From: Spirochaetia bacterium
Lineage (GTDB): Bacteria; Spirochaetota; Spirochaetia; SZUA-6; Bin103
Assembly (NCBI GenBank): GCA_965198005.1
Contig: CBDAOI010000002.1
Coordinates: forward strand, 160,001-224,000
Direction of reading: 5' to 3'
DNA: 64,000 bases
The notes under the pieces are model-generated. The model saw nothing but the letters and a program-made list of their open reading frames with translations. It was not told the origin of the DNA and did no database searches. The position numbers and the translations under genes are program-made. Positions 1,431 through 41,447 of the stretch are shown in pieces (the first letter of the stretch is position 1; every line of letters begins with the position of its first letter).

Positions 1431-1608
1431 ATGTATCAAAGTTGGTCGCATCAAAGATCAGTAGCCGCAGAGACCCCCCAGCAATTCTCGGTGAACAAAA
1501 ATTGAGAGGGTCGGCGTAGGGGGCAATGGCGGGCGGGACGGCACGTAAGTGGTCGTATAGGTCATGAGTATGTAATAAGTTGCCTAGCGGCTGGAGTAAA
1601 TATTCGGT

Positions 1609-2490
1609 CTACTGGTTGGGGTGAGGATCGAGCGGGGCGCAGAGGCGGCGGCGGAAATCGCGGCGGAGCGGATAGAGCCAGATGTCCTTCTTGGGCAGAG
1701 CGTGTTGGTTGTGGACATCGAGTTTGCCGCGGCCTTGGGTTTGCCCGACGTGGATCCAATTGGCGGCACGGTAGCTGGTGCCGACGAACCGATCGGATTG
1801 GACGAAGGTCTCCAGCAGCAGGGGGCGGTAGCCGTAGCGGCTGTGCCAGTCCTCCGGCAACCGGCGGCAGCTGCGCGCGAGCACCCAGGAGGCGAGGTTC
1901 TTGACCTGCACCCACGGCAGGATCAGGAAGCGGGCGTTGTTGACCACGAGGGGCAAGCGGGCCTCGCGTTGGGCCGCACTCCAGCCGATGAACCGGTCGC
2001 GCGGCGCCACCTTCCAGGCGCAGGCGGCAAACCCCAGCACGGCGAGCACCTGCGGCCCGCTGAGCACCAGATAGCGCAGTTGTGCTCCCGCCAGCGGGGT
2101 GTAGCCGAGGTAATGGTAGCGGTCCACGTACTCACGCCAGAGCGCCGCTTCGGCGCCCTTGGCGACCGGGCGCAGGTGCAGTTCGGACAGCCCCTGGAGG
2201 CTGCCGGTGATCGGTGATTGGGGCTCTGCCTGCGGCGTGCGGCGGCGCCGCAGGCGGCCGTTGTAGCAGGCCTGCTGTGGTGGGGGTAGTTGGATCAGGC
2301 CGGCACGGTGCATGCGCAGCAGGGCGACCCGGCAACTCATATCCTTCAGTCCCCCGTTGGGGCGCCGCCAGTCGAGCCGTTCGCAGACCAGCCGCGACAG
2401 GGCCAGCCGATGGTGGCCCGGATGCTCGGCCATGAGGCTGCGGATCAACTCCAGCTCCTGCACGCTGAAGGTGCGCCCGCAGTAGCGCAC
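1609..2490 (-). CDS. DUF4338 (Druantia DruA-like) domain protein
   Basis: RYHYLGY...GAQLRY...RDRFIGW...VVNNARFLILPWV.VKNLAS...YGYRPLLLETFV...GTSYRAANW..VGQTQGRGK motifs. Confidence 0.9.
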   Translation of the reverse strand: MRYCGRTFSVQELELIRSLMAEHPGHHRLALSRLVCERLDWRRPNGGLKDMSCRVALLRMHRAGLIQLPPPQQACYNGRLRRRRTPQAEPQSPITGSLQGLSELHLRPVAKGAEAALWREYVDRYHYLGYTPLAGAQLRYLVLSGPQVLAVLGFAACAWKVAPRDRFIGWSAAQREARLPLVVNNARFLILPWVQVKNLASWVLARSCRRLPEDWHSRYGYRPLLLETFVQSDRFVGTSYRAANWIHVGQTQGRGKLDVHNQHALPKKDIWLYPLRRDFRRRLCAPLDPHPNQ

Positions 2491-2495
2491 CAGCG

Positions 2496-4146
2496 TCAGG
2501 CGGCGCGCTGCGGGGCAGCCCCTGGCGGGGCTGGCGAGGCGCGCGGCGCTTGCCCGTCGCGGCGGTTCCAGGGCAGGAAGCGCTCAAAGTCCTCCGGCAC
2601 CCGACTGCCGGCGGCGGCGCATGCATTCAGGTACTCGGTCAGCCAAATGCGCGGGTTGATCTGCCACAACTCGAGCGTGTGGAACAGGCTGAACAGCGTG
2701 GCGGTCAACTCACCGCTCCAGGTCGCCCCCGAGCCGTAGTAGTTCTTGCGCCCCACCACCGGCCCACGCAACGCGCGTTCGGCCTGATTGTTGTCCATCG
2801 GGATAGCGGGCTGGTCGACGAACCGGATCAGCCCTGACCAGTGGTTGCGCAGACTGGTAAGCACTTTCTTGCGTGCCTGCGGCAGCTTCGGCTGTGCCAG
2901 TTCGCGCTCCAACCGCTGCGCCATCGCTGTTACCGCCGCGCGCAGCGCCGCGTCGGCCGCAGCCCACTGTACGGGGTCGTTGCACACCGGCAGGCGTACA
3001 GCATTCAAGTGATACAGCTCGCCGATCAGCTCCAGCCACTGCTCGCCCCATTCCCGGTGCTCGTCCCATTTCTCGGCCACGCGGATAAAATCGCGTCGAA
3101 CATGCGCCCAGCAGTACTGCAATTCCAGCGGGGTGTCCTTGGCCAACCGTTTGTAGGAGGAATACCGGTCGACACTCACGATGCCTCCCGCCACCCCCGC
3201 AAAATGCTCCTTCGGCACCCGCGCCGAGCGCGTCCGATCAAGGGTGAACACTACCGCCTCACGACACCAGAACACCCACAGACACCAGCGCTGGCCAGGC
3301 CTCCTGGTCAGTCGCTTCAAACACGTACCAGCCGGTCTCGTCGGCGTGCCAGTGGTCATCCAGGCGGTTGCGCCCGATCAGCGCCTCCCGTAGCGGCGCA
3401 AACAGCGGCGCCAAGCGCTTCAGGCCGTCGGTGATGGTGCCCTGCGCCAGCTCCAGGCCATGCGTGCTCAGGTCTTCCAGCAGCCGATAGGTCGGTCGGT
3501 GAAAGCGATACTTGTCGAGCAGCACCTGCACCCAGATCGAGACTCCCAGAATCCCCTTCGGAATCAGCCGTGACGGCGCCGGCGCGGTGAGCACGCGCGG
3601 CACGCCGGCGCAGCCGCAACTGCAGTGGTACCGCTGGCGCTTGATCACCCGCCGGTGGGCGCGCACTTCAATCTCCAGCACCTCGGAGTCCTCGCTGCCG
3701 GCCGCGCCGTACTCCCCGCCACACTTGGGACAGCAGCGCGCGTTCGGCTCCAGCTTGTGGTGTTCCTCCTGCGCCGGCAGCGCTGAGTGGTCGCGCCGGC
3801 CATGCCCACTCGACCCGGGTTGCTGGCCCCGCGGGCGCGGCGCTGCCGCCGCCTCGCTGCCGCTGCCGCTGCCGCTCTTGGCGCGCTTCTCGCTCTTGTT
3901 GTTGCGCCGCGCACGCCGTTCCCGCAGCTGCTGCCGCAACTCCCGGGCCTTCGTCCGCACCCCGCTCAACGTCTCTTTCAGCCGCCGCTCGCGCGCCACC
4001 GCTTTGCGGTGCAGCGCCCGGTAGTACCCCGCCTGCTGCTTGAGCTCCAGGTTCTCCCGCCGCAGTTTCGCTAACACGCGGGCACATCCCCCCGCGCAAC
4101 GCTCCCCGCGCCGTTCCCCATCAGTGTGCCGAGCAGTTCCCCTCAT
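2496..4146 (-). pseudogene. IS66 transposase split by a frameshift near 3305
   Basis: Coiled coil, CPKCG zinc finger and HADET in one frame; SVDRYSSY, CWAHVRRDF, DNNQAERALR in the other. Confidence 0.9.
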
Positions 4147-16424: not shown

Positions 16425-17710
16425 CGGGAGCGCCGTGTTCTCCGGTGTGCCGGACAGCCAGTTGTTGAACTACGGCGTACCCGCTGAGTGGCTGAATGAC
16501 GTCAGGCAGGCGGCTGACGAGGACGCGCTCCTGGCCCTGACGGATCATCTTCCCGCCGAGGCCACCGAGGCGCTGCTGGCACTGGCTACCGGGAGCACAC
16601 CGGAGCGGCCGGTCCGCGGAGGCACGCACGGGGATCCGTTTGCCCATCCCGATGCGCAACGCCGCTTCCGCGTCATGTCCAACCAGGAGGAGCTGCGCCG
16701 GGCGTTCGAATATCCGTGGGAGAAGTGGACGGTCTTTCTGCACCCGGCTCAACGGCAGGTGGTGGAACGGAGCTACCGCGGCCCGGCGCGTGTGTCAGGA
16801 TCTGCCGGAACCGGCAAGACCATCGTGGCGCTGCATCGCGCCGTGCATCTTGCCCGCACCCACTCGGACGCACGCGTGCTGCTGACCATGTTCTCCACGG
16901 CACTTGCGGACGCGTTGCGCGCACGAGTGGTGCGACTCATCGCCAATGAACCGAAGATCGCCGAACGGCTGGAGGTGCACGCGATGGCCGACATCGGGCG
17001 GCGGCTCTACCAGGCGCACTTCGGCCGCCCCGATTTGGCGACCCCCGACCGGGGGCGCGAGCTGTTGCGCCAAGCCGCCGCCGAGGTCGAAGACCTGCGG
17101 TTCAGCTTGCGCTTCCTGTGGACCGAGTGGAGCCGCGTGGTCGACGCCTGGCAGCTTGCGAGCTGGGAACATTATCGGGACGTGCCGCGGCTCGGTCGGA
17201 GGACTCGCCTGCCCGAACGGCAGCGGGAGCTCCTCTGGTCGGTCTTCTCCAGGGTGGCCGCCGCTCTGGACGAGCACGGGCTCCTAAGAAACAACAGTTT
17301 CTTACATGACCACGCCGGGCCCCGCCCGGTGGGAAGCTCCTGAGAAACTACCACTGTTTCTGCCATGACTGCGCCGGGCCGCAGGGCCGGTGGGAAGCTC
17401 CTGACCGAACCGCGCCTGTTCGGTCGCCTGCAGCGCCAGATCGCGAAGATGGCGCGCCCGCCGTTCGAGTTCTGCGTGGTGGACGAGGCCCAGGACATCG
17501 GCGTGGCCGAGTTGCGCTTTCTGGCCGCCCTCGGCGCCGGTCGCCCGGACGCCCTGTTCTTCGCCAGCGACCTCGGTCCACGGATCTTCCAGACGCCGTT
17601 CTCCTGGCGCGCCTTGGGGGGCGGCATCCGTGGGCGCTCGCACACCTTGCGGGTCAACTACCGCACCTCCCATCAGATCCGGCGGCAGGCGGACCGGCTG
17701 CTGCCGCCCG
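16425..17710 (+). pseudogene. UvrD/REP-type helicase central portion, disrupted by a 117-bp insertion and truncated at both ends
   Basis: WTVFLHPAQR, GPARVSGSAGTGKT (Walker A), VVDEAQD; insertion at 17286-17402 carries an in-frame TGA. Confidence 0.88.
17283..17402 (-). mobile_element. Two stacked ends-only miniature IS110 derivatives (56 bp and 61 bp)
   Basis: Unit 1 equals the two ends of the IS110 at 37802-39523 joined at ACAG; unit 2 is a variant; empty alleles GCTCCTGACCGAA at about 12093 and 22334. Confidence 0.88.
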
Positions 17711-36353: not shown

Positions 36354-37292
36354 CTACGGACGTTGGGCGTCGAGGAACGCGCGCACGCGCTCGGGCACCA
36401 GCAGGTCGGGCTGGGCCAGCAAGGCCGCCAGCCGCTGCGGGTCGGCGAAGCCGTTTTGCAGCGCCGTCTGCAGCGCCTTGAGCCCCGCGTACGGGGCCTC
36501 CACCTCGGTGAGCAGAATGACCGCGCGCTCGAATTCGACCTCGGCGTAGAGGTCCCGGCGCTCGGGACTGCCGCCGCCGCCGCGCGCCCCGAGCGCTACG
36601 AGCGCAAGCTCGTAGGCGCGCAGGGCCGCCACGTAGCTCTCCCGCCGGGTCTCGACCCGGGCCAGCGCGACCAGGGCGTCCACGTCGTGGGGATGCACCT
36701 CGAGGTACCGGGACAGCACGGGGGCGGCCGCGTCCGGCAGCCCCGAGTCCGCCAGCAGCACGCCGAGCTGATAGCGCGCCTGGTGGTCGCCGGGCTCCTG
36801 ATCGAGCAGCACGCGCAACTCGTCCGCGGCGGCCGCGCGGTCGCCCTGTTCCCAGAGCAGCATCGCGGCGTTGTAGCGGGCGGTGACGTGCGCCGGCTGC
36901 AGGTGCAGCAACTTCCGGTACACCGCCAGCGCGGCCGCGAATCGGCCCTGCCCCTGCAGCGCAGCCGCCCGCAACTCCAGCACGCGCACATTGTCGGGCG
37001 TGGCCGCGGCCAGCAGGTCCAGGTGGGGCATGGCGGCGGCCGGGTGGCCGGCCCGGATCAGGGCGGTCGCCAGGTGGAACCGTGCCCCGGGAGCGTCCGG
37101 CCGCAGCTCCAGGGCGCGCTCGAGATACGCGATCGCCCGCTCCGGCTGGTCCAGCCGCAGATAGCCGCTCCCCAGGGCCACGTACTCGTCCGCCAGCTCG
37201 GCACGGCTGAGATCCGTGGCGCAGCCCGCCAGGATCACCACGGCCAGCACCACGGCCGCCGCGGCCGCGCTCCCTGTACGCCATGCGCCCAT
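36354..37292 (-). CDS. TPR-repeat lipoprotein, duplicate copy
   Basis: Lipobox LAGC, TPR motifs; nearly identical to 43543..44487. Confidence 0.88.
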   Translation of the reverse strand: MGAWRTGSAAAAAVVLAVVILAGCATDLSRAELADEYVALGSGYLRLDQPERAIAYLERALELRPDAPGARFHLATALIRAGHPAAAMPHLDLLAAATPDNVRVLELRAAALQGQGRFAAALAVYRKLLHLQPAHVTARYNAAMLLWEQGDRAAAADELRVLLDQEPGDHQARYQLGVLLADSGLPDAAAPVLSRYLEVHPHDVDALVALARVETRRESYVAALRAYELALVALGARGGGGSPERRDLYAEVEFERAVILLTEVEAPYAGLKALQTALQNGFADPQRLAALLAQPDLLVPERVRAFLDAQRP

Positions 37293-37509
37293 CCGCACGC
37301 CGCAGTGTGCGCGATTCGCCGGAGCCGGGCCAAGTGCCCCAAGTGCCCGTGCTAGCGTAAGTTGCGCACTTTCAAGGACGATGTAGCGAGATTTGCCGGT
37401 CGCACAGATGAACGGAGGCCCCTGAGGGCGAGAGATTCTACCGGGGGACGAGTTTTTCCCCATGTAGTGATAAAGAGCATGGTAAGCAGTTTCTTGGTGC
37501 AGAAATATC

Positions 37510-37538
37510 TTGACCGCTCTCGCCCCCGTTGCTATCTT
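37510..37538 (+). promoter_or_regulatory. Putative sigma70 promoter of the IS1634 transposase
   Basis: TTGACC-17 nt-TATCTT with TG extension, 8 nt before GTG 37547. Confidence 0.6.
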
Positions 37539-37829
37539 GTGCGTGCGTGTTCATCGGTCAGCTCAAAGTCTCCCGCAACGGCCGCTCCTACACCTACCAC
37601 CGCCTCCTGCAGTCGGTACGCACCGATAACGGCCCCCGGCAGCGACTCATCCTGAGCCTCGGCACCCTCACGCTCCCCAAGTCCGAGTGGCCGCGCTTGG
37701 CCGAACGCATCCACGACAATGTCAACGTCACAAGCCCCGGGACCAAGCTCCTAAATCGGGTTTCTTACATGACCACGCCGGGCCCCGCCCGGTGGGAAGC
37801 TCCTAAGAAACAACAGTCAGGCACGACAG

Positions 37830-39245
37830 TCAGGCAGCCTCCGGGACAAGCACATAACCGAGGGCCCGAGCTTGGTTGCGGACGCGGCGTTCGAGGCGTC
37901 GCAGGTCTTGGCGTTCCTGGGCGGCGAGGATGCTGTCGTCGTACGCAACGCGATGGGTAACGAGATGGTAGATGATGCGCGCCAGTTTGTGGGCAGTCGC
38001 CGTGATCGCCTCGGGAGTACCCAGGCGCGCGCGCATCCGGCGGAAGTACTGGCCGAGGGACGAGGGGCTGCGGTACAAGCACTGGGTAGCCCAGCGTAGC
38101 GCCTGAGCAGCGCGATTGGTGCCGGGTCCGGTGTGTGCGCTGATGATCCTGCCGCCGGTGATCTGGTTGTTGGGACACAGGTTCAGCCAGGATGCGAATT
38201 GCCCCGCAGTCGGGAAGCGTGACAGGTCGGGGCCAAACTCGGTGAACAGGATCAGTGCAGTGCTTTCGCCGATGCCGGGAATGAGCGTCAGGTCGGTGCC
38301 GAACAGGCGCGCAAGGTGCGCCTTCAGGTTGAACGGCTTGGGCGGTGACTCGGTTGGCGTCGGCGGCGCATCGGCGGTCTCCTCCGCAGGGTCCTCCGCA
38401 GGGTCCTCCGCAGGGTCCTCCGCAGGGTCCTCCGCCGGCGCGCTCGGCGGCTCGTTCGTGGATTCGAACGAGCGGATGCGAGCTTCGATTTCCTGATCAC
38501 ACTCCGCGATGAGCTGTTGGTAGTGGGCATAGGTGGCACGCGCGTGACGCAGTGTAAACAGATGCTCGGAGCGCCAGTCACCTTCCAGCGCTGCAATCAG
38601 GGTGGCGCGGCTGGCTTTGATCCGCCGGTCGGCCAGATCGGCCAAGCGTGCTGGATCCCGCTCTCCGTTCAGGATGGCCTCGGTGATAGCCATCCCCGTG
38701 ACCCCGGTCAGGTCAGAGATGGCGTGGTGCAGATGGACGTTCATCTGGTCGTACGCCTTCTGCATGTGCAACACGCTCCGTGAGGCGGTCTTGATCAAGT
38801 TGTCGCGATGGCGCAGCAGGGCGCGCATCGCACAGACTTCGTCAGCGGGCCGGAACGAACCGCGCAGCAGGCCCACGGAGTGCAGGTAGCGCAGCCACTC
38901 GCAGTCGGCCACGTCGGACTTGCGTCCGGGGACCGAGTGCACGTGACGCGCGTTGACCAGCACCACGTCGAAGCCATGCGCCTCCAGGATCTGGTGCACC
39001 GGGATCCAGTAGACCCCGGTCGACTCCATCGCCACAGTGGTTACCTGGCATTCCTTGAGCCAGTTGGCCAAAGCGTGCAGGTCGCCAGTAAAGGTGGGAA
39101 AGTTCCGGATCGGGTCCGGGTCGCGATCAGGGCGCACCGCCGCGTACACCGCCGTGGCGCCCACGTCCAAGCCCGCGGCGTCGGGATGGACGGTATTCGG
39201 TTGCGCTGAACGACTGCCTTTGCCTTTACGGCTGCGTCGTGCCAT
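37830..39245 (-). CDS. IS110-family DEDD recombinase/transposase
   Basis: GLDVG, AMESTGVYW, VNA, GRKSDVAD, IPGIG, FASWLNLCP, AITATAHKLARIIY; GGAGGA RBS. Confidence 0.95.
   Translation of the reverse strand: MARRSRKGKGSRSAQPNTVHPDAAGLDVGATAVYAAVRPDRDPDPIRNFPTFTGDLHALANWLKECQVTTVAMESTGVYWIPVHQILEAHGFDVVLVNARHVHSVPGRKSDVADCEWLRYLHSVGLLRGSFRPADEVCAMRALLRHRDNLIKTASRSVLHMQKAYDQMNVHLHHAISDLTGVTGMAITEAILNGERDPARLADLADRRIKASRATLIAALEGDWRSEHLFTLRHARATYAHYQQLIAECDQEIEARIRSFESTNEPPSAPAEDPAEDPAEDPAEDPAEETADAPPTPTESPPKPFNLKAHLARLFGTDLTLIPGIGESTALILFTEFGPDLSRFPTAGQFASWLNLCPNNQITGGRIISAHTGPGTNRAAQALRWATQCLYRSPSSLGQYFRRMRARLGTPEAITATAHKLARIIYHLVTHRVAYDDSILAAQERQDLRRLERRVRNQARALGYVLVPEAA
38380..38435 (+). repeat. 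12-bp in-frame tandem repeat (TCCTCCGCAGGG)x4.7 encoding PAED repeats
   Basis: Direct reading; protein reads PAEDPAEDPAEDPAEDPAEE. Confidence 0.95.
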
Positions 39246-39269
39246 GAGAATCCTCCGCTATGGACTGAG

Positions 39270-39445
39270 TGGGGCGGCCAAGGCGTGAGTAGCAGGTATT
39301 CTCCTAAACGGGATGATCGCCACCCAGCAGCGCCAAGCGAAGACCTCACCAATGACTACGCCACCCGCCCTGGGACCAAGCTCCTGAACGGGTTCGCCCC
39401 GCAGGGCGTAACACCAATGACGCGACGGCCTACTTTCGCGCCCCT
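39270..39445 (-). ncRNA. Putative IS110 bridge RNA A (two guide loops)
   Basis: Two modules on the minus strand: GTCAT-TGGTG-stem-CCCGT-TCAGGAG and GTCAT-TGGTG-stem-CCCGT-TTAGGAG, directly upstream of the recombinase; boundaries approximate. Confidence 0.8.
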
Positions 39446-39523
39446 ACCCAGAGATTTGCACCCATAATAGCGCTCGCCACAGTTTCTTACATGACCACGC
39501 CGGGCCCCGCCCGGTGGGAAGCT

Positions 39524-39761
39524 TCTGAGAAACAAACAAGTCAGGAATGAGCGTTCAAGGAACTGAATGGCTGTCTGGTGGCGCCCTGCTGTCCTCCTGC
39601 GTGATGGGTGGATGGCGCGGCGGGGCGTGAACGACAGGTATTCTTCTGAACGGGATGATCGCGACCGGACGATGCCAGTCCGCGATCTCACCAATGTCAA
39701 CGTCACAAGCCCCGGGACCAAGCTCCTAGTCGGGTTCGCGCCCAGCAGGGCGTCACACCAA
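39524..39761 (-). mobile_element. Recombinase-less IS110 sister element B with its own bridge-RNA-like region, truncated
   Basis: End TCTGAGAAACAAACAAGTCAGG parallels A end CCTAAGAAACAACAGTCAGG; 39620-39761 is homologous to 39280-39417; RBS-like AGGAGG on the minus strand but no recombinase ORF. Confidence 0.78.
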
Positions 39762-40752
39762 CGGAGTTGGCAGCGCGCGAGCGGGAGCTGTTCACGCTGC
39801 AAGAAACCATCATCCTGTACGACTTGAGTTCGACTTACTTCGAAGGCCTCGCGGCCAACAACGAGAAGGCGGCGCGGGGGTACTCGCGGGATCATCGACC
39901 GGACCGCAAGCAAGTAGTGGTCGGTCTGGTGCTGGATGGCGAGGGCTTTCCCAAGGCGCACGAGGTGTTCAAGGGCAACACCAAAGACGAGACCACCATG
40001 GCGCGGATGCTCGACAGCCTGGACCGCCGGATCAGTGTTCGGAGCGGGGCGGGGCGACGGTGGTAATGGACCGTGGCTTGGCGACGGACGAGAACCTGGC
40101 AGTGCTGCGCAAGCGCGGTCAGCACTATATCGTGACCACTGAACAGAGCCAGCGGCGTGAGCTGTTTCCCGAGATTGACAGTTCCGGATACGTGCCGGTG
40201 AAAGTGAACAGGAAGGGGAAAATCGTCGTCTCAGGCCAACTGCGGCGGCATCAGGGTGAGCTGTACGTGTTGTGTTACAGTGAGGCGCGGGCGGCCAAGG
40301 ATCGTGCGATACGGGAACGGTTCGCACACCTATTCGAACGGGAGTATTGTGGCTGGTATTGAGCGGTCCGTCAAATGTGGTAAAATGCGAACGCCCCCTG
40401 TGCGGGGGCGTCCACACTCTACCTGCCGCTGAGCAGGAGCCGGAGGCAGTGATTGTCTCCGGCTGCTTCGTCAACGGCGAAGGAGTCTTCTGTGGGGCAA
40501 CGCAAGCCTACCCTTCTCGACTATTTCCGCCCGAATCCTGCCGCGTGCATCTGTGGAGCGGAGTTTGATCGGCAATGCCCGGTCAACGTCACTCTCATGG
40601 ATCGCTACAGAGGTCCGGTGCAGGGCCTATTCTCGGTGGCTCAGAAGCATGGGATCACGACAGAGGAAGTGCGGGAGCACCTAACCCGCCTTCCACCTGC
40701 CCGCGTCAACTACGAGGCTTAACGCCTACGGGGCGCCTGCCCCTCCCAACCT

Positions 40753-41447
40753 TCAGATCCGCTTACGCTCCATCCCCTGGACCACCATCCGCATCTGGAC
40801 CTCGGTGTTGTCGTAGGGACGCTGGTTGTGGCGGCCGGCGAACTCGTTCACGTAGCGTTGCAGGTGGGCCGGGCTCATCCGGTGGTAGGTGCCATAGTAG
40901 CCCCGCTTCATCATGGTCCAGAACGATTCCAGACCGTTGGTGTGCGCCTGCCCTTCACGTACTCGCCCAGCCCGTGGTTGACCGATGTGTGGTTCGGCAG
41001 CCCCTTGTACGACGCACTCTAATCGGTGTACACGTCCGCCTCCTGGCACCACGGCTGCGCTGATCTGGCGGGAAGCGTGGTCGCGCGCGCCCGCCACGGT
41101 GGACTTGCCGGCGGTGCCGCGGCCGCGGTTCGTCCGCTTGGAGACGTGCTTGTTCTTCTCCTTGCCGCCGCAGTAGGACTCGTCCAGCTCGACCGGCCCC
41201 CTCACAGGACTGGTCGCCCGCCTGATAGTCCCAAGCCTCACGGATGCGGTGCGCGAGATGCCAAGCGGTTTTCTGGGTCACGCCGAGATCGCGATGCAGC
41301 TTCATGCTGGAGGTGCCCTTGATCCCGGTGGTCAGCAGATAGACGCCCAACGCCCAGGTCTGCATCCCAAGGTTGGGCCTCCTGCATGACGCTCCCGTTC
41401 TTGACCGAGCAGTCGTTGCGACAGGAGCGACAGACACGGCGGATCAA
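40753..41447 (-). pseudogene. IS1595 (ISXO2-like) transposase, multiply frameshifted
   Basis: KGTSSMKLHRDLGVTQKTAWHLAHRIRE, VELDESYCGGK, HTNGLESFW..MKRG..GTYH..S..HLQRYVNEF. Confidence 0.9.

Follow-up and report, generated by a model that had tools for sequence, protein, structure and literature searches.

Element B, at 39524-39762 on the minus strand of the window (the whole 64-kb stretch of Spirochaetia bacterium DNA that was analysed), is very probably a truncated, non-autonomous remnant of an IS110-family element that is inert, stands in a head-to-tail array, and still carries a bridge-RNA guide matching its own end. The evidence for this reading comprises exact sequence matches between guides and ends, a guide rule kept by related elements, element boundaries and a crossover core fixed at an insertion site, a two-domain fold of the aligned RNAs, the absence of a recombinase ORF from B, and the truncation of B itself.

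Structure of the locus

Three IS110-family units, C, A and B, form a head-to-tail array in one orientation within a broken IS1634-family transposase gene. Their order on the plus strand is fragment C (37717-37799), element A (37802-39521), and element B (39524-39762), and each junction between units consists of CT plus the first 5 nt of the right-hand unit. The features of the locus are the following:

37529..37716, plus strand: 5' part of the IS1634-family transposase gene that hosts the array, 95-98% identical to an intact paralogue
37717..37799, minus strand: fragment C, remnant of a B-type element (repeat families D3 and D4)
37800..37806, plus strand: junction 7-mer CTCCTAA, made of the core CT (37800-37801) and A's terminal CCTAA
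37802..39521, minus strand: element A, a full element of the IS110 family, 1720 bp long, with ends defined from about ten mini elements and a filled/empty site
37830..39245, minus strand: A's recombinase gene, 471 aa, apparently intact (Pfam, NF033542)
39255..39457, minus strand: A's bridge RNA as modelled, with closing helix, target-loop domain and donor-loop domain (alignment A1, pair counts)
39482..39521, minus strand: A's bridge-RNA-side terminal 40 nt, with the imperfect palindrome GCCGGGC CCC GCCCGG, 7 nt from the core
39522..39528, plus strand: junction 7-mer CTTCTGA, made of the core CT and B's terminal TCTGA
39524..39762, minus strand: element B, a truncated B-type element running from its stop-side end to a partial target-loop domain
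39763..40343, plus strand: IS1634-family host gene, resumed, 98% identical to the intact copy over 583 nt

The intact paralogue of the host gene lies elsewhere in the same genome (G000:C2:239103-240503), and its 611-aa ORF matched NF033559 with 327 bits (cut-off 100). The array stands in place of about 443 nt of this paralogue (C2:239477-239919). The left breakpoint (37716/37717) falls exactly at the paralogue's CTTCTCA, which reads CTCCTCA in a public-run contig, and the right breakpoint is at 39762/39763. A single short motif, which recurs on the 5' side of both RNA loops, contains the break at either outer end of the array.

Fragment C opens with 37 nt of target-loop region (from 37717) that are identical to 39692-39728 in B, and an internal deletion fuses this target-loop part to the bridge-RNA-side terminal 40 nt (37760-37799, ...CCGGTGGGAAG). 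Its target guide, CTCCTAA (37748-37754), matches the 7-mer of the next junction at 7 of 7 positions. Both ends of A carry a 54-nt repeat, at 37760 and 39482 (repeat family D4).

Element B and its guides

The guide DNA of element A reads CTCCTAA for the donor loop (39301-39307) and CTCCTGA for the target loop (39381-39387), and the donor 7-mer is identical to the 7-mer at A's end (CTCCTAA, 37800-37806, adjoining GAAACAACAG). Element B shows the same relation in other letters: its end 7-mer is CTTCTGA (39522-39528, adjoining GAAACAAACAAG), its donor guide is the same CTTCTGA (39643-39649), and its target guide is CTCCTAG (39723-39729). The donor 7-mers of A and B differ at positions 3 and 6, and both changes are matched at end and guide. 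Because CTTCTGA occurs only seven times in the 64-kb window, counting both strands, and because the same rule held in 49 of 49 related copies (see below), the identity of guide and end in B is beyond chance. The original prediction had named these strings, and all of them are present: CTCCTAA at 37800 and 39301, CTTCTGA at 39522 and 39643, and CTCCTAG at 39723. The left-guide string that it proposed, ATGTCAA, is also there, but starts at 39693 and not at 39694.

Positions 39624-39742 of B are a 76% copy of A's 39282-39400 (119 nt; repeat family D1). The parts that B retains are the stop-side end, an ORF-less remnant of about 95 nt, a complete donor-loop domain, and the 3' two-thirds of the target-loop domain. 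Out of 82 columns that are invariant among 13 family RNAs, B covers 68, starting at column 46, and is identical at 67 of these. It lacks the promoter region, the bridge-RNA-side end, the target loop's 5' side, and the 5' strand of each of two helices, the closing one and the outer one of the target domain; homology to other B-type copies ends at 39762, where the host gene resumes. No recombinase-domain ORF lies within 39522-39762, and B encodes no recombinase of its own, which agrees with its earlier description as a recombinase-less sister element, as does a complete 339-nt copy found elsewhere in the genome. A promoter scan of 39200-39900, covering the bridge-RNA regions of both A and B, passed no site. 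With its promoter, one end, and a strand from each of two helices gone, this copy is probably inert, a dead remnant. Judged from its sequence, it is unlikely to supply guides in trans, because the promoter and the 5' part of the RNA are missing; such a supply is conceivable for a complete B-type copy only.

Element A, mini elements, and the crossover point

The ORF of element A matched PF01548 with 67.8 bits and PF02371 with 38.1 bits (DEDD/RuvC-like and Transposase_20 domains), as well as NF033542, "IS110 family RNA-guided transposase", with 250 bits (cut-off 140), and its entire length can be aligned with relatives of 461-488 aa. The assembly holds one intact recombinase gene, that of A, which is the sole full copy, and two truncated ones. 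Upstream of A's RNA a conserved -10-like hexamer lies at 39464-39469 (reverse complement TATTAT). The recombinase gene also contains, at 38371-38438, a 12-nt tandem repeat of about 4-5 units that encodes (PAED)n; the repeat lies in the linker between the two recombinase domains, and this linker is variable in all aligned relatives.

About ten "mini" derivatives of A occur in the genome, each consisting of GAAACAACA joined to the terminal 40 nt. Their left 7-mer is CTCCTAA, and the right one is CTCCTGA (5 copies), CTCCTCA (3) or CTCCTAA (2). For one mini there is an empty paralogous site, which reads ...ggtaactac TCAGGAG gacctgtgacagg..., and in the filled site 63 nt ending in TTAGGAG are inserted directly after the same TCAGGAG. 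Written in the plus-strand sense of the window, the filled site is flank-CT-CCTAA-GAAACA...GGGAAG-CT-CCTGA-flank. This pair shows that the minis are insertions, fixes their boundaries, and places the crossover within the first CT of the 7-mer. A crossover at the CT core had been predicted and is borne out, but the CT in question is the first one (positions 1-2) and not the second CT of CTCCTAA. The target of this mini, CT-CCTGA, is identical to A's internal 7-mer at 39381. No empty site was found for the mini at C4:1123760, the flanks of which are repeats.

Two minis stand in tandem in the window at 17281-17404. The first is A-type (17281-17343) and reads CTCCTAA, GAAACAACA and the terminal 40 nt; after it come CTCCTGA, the second mini, which has diverged (GAAACTACCACT...GGGAAG), and once more CTCCTGA. 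The 7-mer between the two, which is given by the end of the second mini, is the same as A's target guide. At G000:C2:733600-733942 a mini is followed by the first 320 nt of an A copy (100% identical to that of the window) and then by unrelated sequence.

The guide rule across relatives

The rule was examined in a census of 55 unique copies with nine guide combinations (from G000, G003, G007, G008, G018, G019 and G020), drawn from a search of 24 genomes of the family and from extra retrieved sequences. The donor-loop 7-mer was identical to the 7-mer of the stop-side (GAAACA) end in all 49 copies in which that end was captured, a count that rests on four distinct donor 7-mers from four lineages because copies within a genome are kin. 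The target-loop 7-mer was identical to the 7-mer after the bridge-RNA-side (GGGAAG-like) end in 45 of 53 copies, compared with 18.5 exact matches on average and 27 at most after label shuffling; this target rule rests on many independent insertions. Three of the eight non-exact target sites keep G.T or U.G pairing with a minus-strand RNA, and five are true mismatches. Together with the independent complete B-type copy described below, the census upholds the earlier claim that B's donor guide co-varies with its own end.

Every 7-mer in the census starts with CT. On the other flank of the insertions no conserved sequence was found (n=22 and n=15), no position within 60 nt exceeding 0.9 bit, and the specified recognition is the CT+5 half-site only. 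At two loci, L087 in G018 and L108 in G019, full elements are inserted in the target-guide DNA of another copy (...ctcgggaccaag CT CCTTA GAAACA...), so DNA that codes for a target guide is itself a target. Co-variation of guide and end is, as a principle, already established; bridge-RNA co-variation and programmability are described in Durrant et al. 2024 (PMC11208160).

Three of the copies from G018 (loci L031, L039 and L096) share an in-frame 159-nt deletion in the recombinase (408 vs 461 aa) and have proper junctions. These are possibly defective elements that keep their bridge RNA and are mobilised in trans, a reading that concerns the family and not B.

RNA model and the search for a left guide

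For the RNA model, 13 distinct sequences were aligned in the minus-strand sense (alignment A1) and folded domain by domain with RNAalifold; folding of the whole non-coding end by the same program gave a poor fold, and the domain-wise procedure was adopted. The predicted fold consists of a closing helix, a target-loop domain, and a donor-loop domain, with each domain built from an outer helix, an internal loop, an inner helix (UGGUG with A/UCCCG), and a hairpin. Among the 44 modelled pairs, 93.3% of the cells were paired, compared to 33-52% when the partners were slid, and eight pairs change on both sides, compared to 3.1 in shuffles; many pairs are invariant and uninformative. Several invariant G.U pairs are compatible only with an RNA from the minus strand. 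The model places each 7-nt guide on its own loop's 3' side. No Rfam family matched within 36500-41000 at an E-value threshold of 1.

According to PMC11208160, top-strand pairing in the IS621 loops falls to the 3' side, over 4-7 nt that take in the CT core, and bottom-strand pairing to the 5' side, over 8-9 nt. If the loops here work alike, these guides would be right-hand guides and the plus strand of the window the top strand, with the genes for recombinase and RNA on the opposite one. IS621-like pairing of both strands at each loop, with a left and a right guide, was not found, and no left guide was detected. Alignment by eye of the 5' side of the donor loop with the end next to the core gave no match, and the best complement to the 5' side in the 60-nt flanks scored 6.3 of 10, the same as in shuffles. 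The 5' segment of the donor loop agreed with the subterminal DNA of its own element at 6.56 of 8 positions and with that of other lineages at 5.92 of 8 (permutation p ~0.015, among kin that are not independent). The left guide assigned to B by the original prediction did not hold up, given this weak co-variation and the lack of a conserved other flank, and the hairpin model that went with it failed in its literal prediction: it called for CATGTC at the left end of B-type elements, and the complete B-type end reads CATGGC.

B-type elements elsewhere in the genome

B-type sequence is present in G000 as five pieces at four loci (one complete copy, three partial copies, and one end fragment). The three pieces outside the window are:

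C3:754598-754260: complete B-type copy, 339 nt, with both ends and both junctions
C2:26556-26894 (locus L068): partial B-type copy, about 100% identical to B over about 190 nt
C3:423858-423922: B-type end fragment, 67 nt, with CTTTTAA

The complete copy has the 7-mer CTTCTGA on its left, which is its own donor guide, and CTTCTTA on its right, which is its own target guide; as had been expected of a full B-type element, its ends follow its guides, at both junctions. A promoter-like TTGCCA-18-TATACT (10/12) lies directly upstream of its RNA. No B-type copy contains an ORF, all copies being about 340 nt or shorter, and the remnant of the ORF in these units amounts to a few codons' worth at the start plus the stop region. 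The ends of B-type elements are homologous to those of A. The donor guide is CTTCTGA in all three B-type copies that keep the donor loop, and the same 7-mer stands at both stop-side junctions that are intact in the assembly (the window and C3 copies) and, in public-run contigs, at a third flank. B and the complete copy differ at 3 of 7 target-guide positions, compared to 22 of 244 columns (9%) overall, a post hoc observation.

In the C2:26 copy, eight bases at the end 7-mer are absent relative to the public-run contigs. A 24-nt patch replaces its target guide (C2:26700-26725) and is identical, in the same orientation, to window 38979-39002 within A's recombinase gene. Locus L068 also holds a long ORF on the bridge-RNA strand (1514-3100, at least 529 aa, running off the locus), which starts 10 nt beyond the stop-side end of the B-type copy.

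B-type sequence was absent from the 23 other genomes of the family, and an exact 25-mer and a degenerate gapped B-type pattern each gave 0 hits both in genome contigs and in metagenome contigs. The mobility of B-type elements is something that we infer only, since a single one of the five pieces is complete and no empty site was found for any copy. Another truncated element, E (G000:C4:1384075-1384870), contains a recombinase gene reduced to aa 227-471 and 67% identical to A's. Before its stop-side end, which carries CTTCTGA as in B-type elements, stands a fragment of the bridge-RNA-side end from another element. It is possible that E is a relative of the helper that B has lost.

Of the words sampled from 39246-39800, 80-88% were present in two RNA libraries labelled sponge metagenome and 48% in a third. 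Library contigs cover 39522-39761, with the fragment-C form of the target guide, and one of them enters a different left flank. Word depth in three RNA libraries of one study was 33-37 over 39522-39761 vs 2.3-5.4 on A, and in a run of unrecorded kind 98.6 vs 56-72, figures that are hints only, because genes cannot be ranked by contig depth and DNA may be present in RNA libraries.

Discussion

A model of B-type elements that accommodates these observations starts from an autonomous element that would have lost nearly its whole recombinase ORF and kept both ends and its own bridge-RNA gene, leaving about 340 bp in the complete form. Bridge RNA would be transcribed from the recombinase strand (window minus), and the 7-nt guide at each loop's 3' side would pair with 5'-CT+NNNNN-3' on the plus strand of the window. 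The donor-loop guide would read the stop-side end, the target-loop guide would read the insertion site, and exchange would take place inside the CT common to donor and target. With CT+5 pairing of this kind, B's guide (RNA UCAGAAG) fits CT-TCTGA and A's guide (UUAGGAG) fits CT-CCTAA. A's donor guide can pair with B's end CTTCTGA via two wobbles, and B's guide meets two mismatches at A's end. We infer that such RNA would be made and would be loaded by A's recombinase.

The model may also account for the arrays. They would build up in G000 because its target guides resemble its donor guides, so that resident stop-side junctions would become targets. Each of the three visible bridge-RNA-side ends of B-type units abuts the stop-side end of another family member (fragment C next to A, the C2:26 copy next to a mini, and the C3 copy next to a truncated element, D), and in the two B-type copies with an intact target guide at such a junction, the guide equals the junction 7-mer at all 7 positions, so both sit at 7-mers matching their own target guide. 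A's right junction, CTTCTGA, pairs with A's target guide via one G.T wobble. In G008, where the target and donor guides are CTCTTGA and CTCCTGA, one of 15 copies is in direct tandem, and a 30-copy group with CTCCTTA and CTTGACA (mostly G018) has no direct tandems. Array growth may owe something, too, to the survival of the recognised CT+5 half-site after an insertion.

Other readings of the same DNA were weighed. Because B adjoins A in the same orientation and a 54-nt repeat occupies both ends of A, B could be thought a local tandem duplicate of A's non-coding end that diverged in place, with the 7-mer match as a leftover; tandem duplication of IS110 modules is known, as outlined in 10.64898/2026.08.14.744561. 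This is scarcely credible for B, whose identity is only 76% to A but 91-100% to the copies found at two loci with unrelated flanks; one of the dispersed copies is complete with two junctions of its own, and public-run contigs join B's end to yet another flank. It is also highly improbable that the 7-mers are subterminal DNA repeats read by a protein, with the copies in the bridge-RNA region as internal binding sites in place of RNA guides. Several points speak against protein-read repeats: the recombinase matches the model for IS110 family RNA-guided transposases; two internal loops, supported by covariation, carry the 7-mers at their 3' side; the target 7-mers vary freely between lineages, always along with the internal copy; and three of the eight non-exact sites keep G.T/U.G pairing with a minus-strand RNA. 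The absence of an Rfam match and the specification of one half-site, unlike IS621, would suit such repeats.

The copy in the window might be active, with its donor-loop or truncated bridge RNA acting in trans with A's recombinase, as its complete donor-loop domain and identity at 67 of 68 invariant columns would allow; cooperation between a truncated loop RNA and a full bridge RNA is reported for another IS110 element (10.1101/2025.10.25.684509). We consider this very unlikely, given that the window copy has no promoter-like site and no conserved -10 region, has lost the 5' strand of both the closing helix and the outer target-domain helix, and, its far end being gone, cannot be a donor. A regulatory or promoter role like that of MITEPpu9 of ISPpu9 (PMC12288879), for which B-type elements would be kept in place of carrying guides, is unlikely as well: the donor guide is identical in three of three B-type copies, the loop architecture is intact in the complete copy, and the target guide is the most divergent spot (3/7 vs 9%), which guide use fits better. 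What argues for such a role is the good promoter-like site in the complete copy, the position of the C2:26 copy, whose end is followed 10 nt downstream by the start codon of a long same-strand ORF, and RNA-library contigs that join B-type sequence to that flank.

If B is read, as we prefer, as an inert remnant of a guide-carrying element, its family can be compared with known IS110 systems. Element A resembles IS621, as that system is summarised in PMC11208160, in its DEDD + Tnp_20 recombinase, in a non-coding RNA in the upstream non-coding end on the same strand, in two internal loops (target and donor) whose guides covary with both, in the common CT core, and in a 3'-side guide that pairs with CT+N over up to 7 nt. 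Unlike the IS621 of that account, a DNA partner is detectable here only for the 3'-side 7-nt guides, no guide of 8-9 nt having been found on the 5' side; conservation is absent from the other flank; B has no recombinase; the CT strand is opposite to the recombinase gene; and the 3'-side donor guide reads the stop-side end and not the bridge-RNA-side end. In ISPpu9 (PMC12288879), AG stands at both ends in gene orientation, equivalent to CT on the other strand, as here. The same source describes MITEPpu9 as a small recombinase-less module with IS-like ends and an RNA gene, found beside the IS or alone, and proposes that it is mobilised in trans. Its RNA, Ssr9, is not a bridge RNA, whereas B-type elements carry a bridge-RNA gene with a donor guide of their own and variable target guides.

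The "dual-match" system of ISPpu10, as outlined in 10.64898/2026.03.19.712850, shares the CT core, a strict right guide with a permissive left one, and a GC-rich stem-loop beside the half-site, but its stem-loop is in the target, and here the palindrome is in the bridge-RNA-side end of the element. Expanded IS110 loci (10.64898/2026.08.14.744561) likewise show head-to-tail whole or partial modules, non-coding repeat units, and one-armed half-site matches at boundaries, and the idea of bridge RNA acting in trans is raised for them. The compact IS110s of that report keep a recombinase without the 5' UTR, and B-type elements are the converse, with the bridge RNA kept and the recombinase lost. Half-match recombination (10.64898/2026.08.31.748434), a truncated target-loop RNA pathway (10.1101/2025.10.25.684509), and bridge-RNA mining (10.64898/2026.10.21.760802) are also reported in the sources cited. 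A recombinase-less element with its own bridge-RNA gene was not found in a partial search of the literature, the supplements of which may list such units.

Classical miniature elements must keep ends that are recognised by the helper transposase. An element with its own bridge RNA needs only the protein, so its ends and targets are free to change. We tentatively suggest that B-type elements might be guide-carrying parasites that borrow only an IS110 recombinase, with ends that drift from those of the helper and target guides tuned to the end 7-mers of resident relatives, and that they home to the stop-side junctions of autonomous copies, build arrays, and offer the resident recombinase alternative donor/target pairs. 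If true, orthogonal donor/guide sets for a single recombinase could arise naturally in this simple way, and trans-acting guides would have a source. Together with its relatives, the locus forms a compact natural data set for the engineering of bridge recombinases, offering a one-sided 7-bp (CT+5) rule, wobble tolerance, and a filled/empty site that fixes the crossover.
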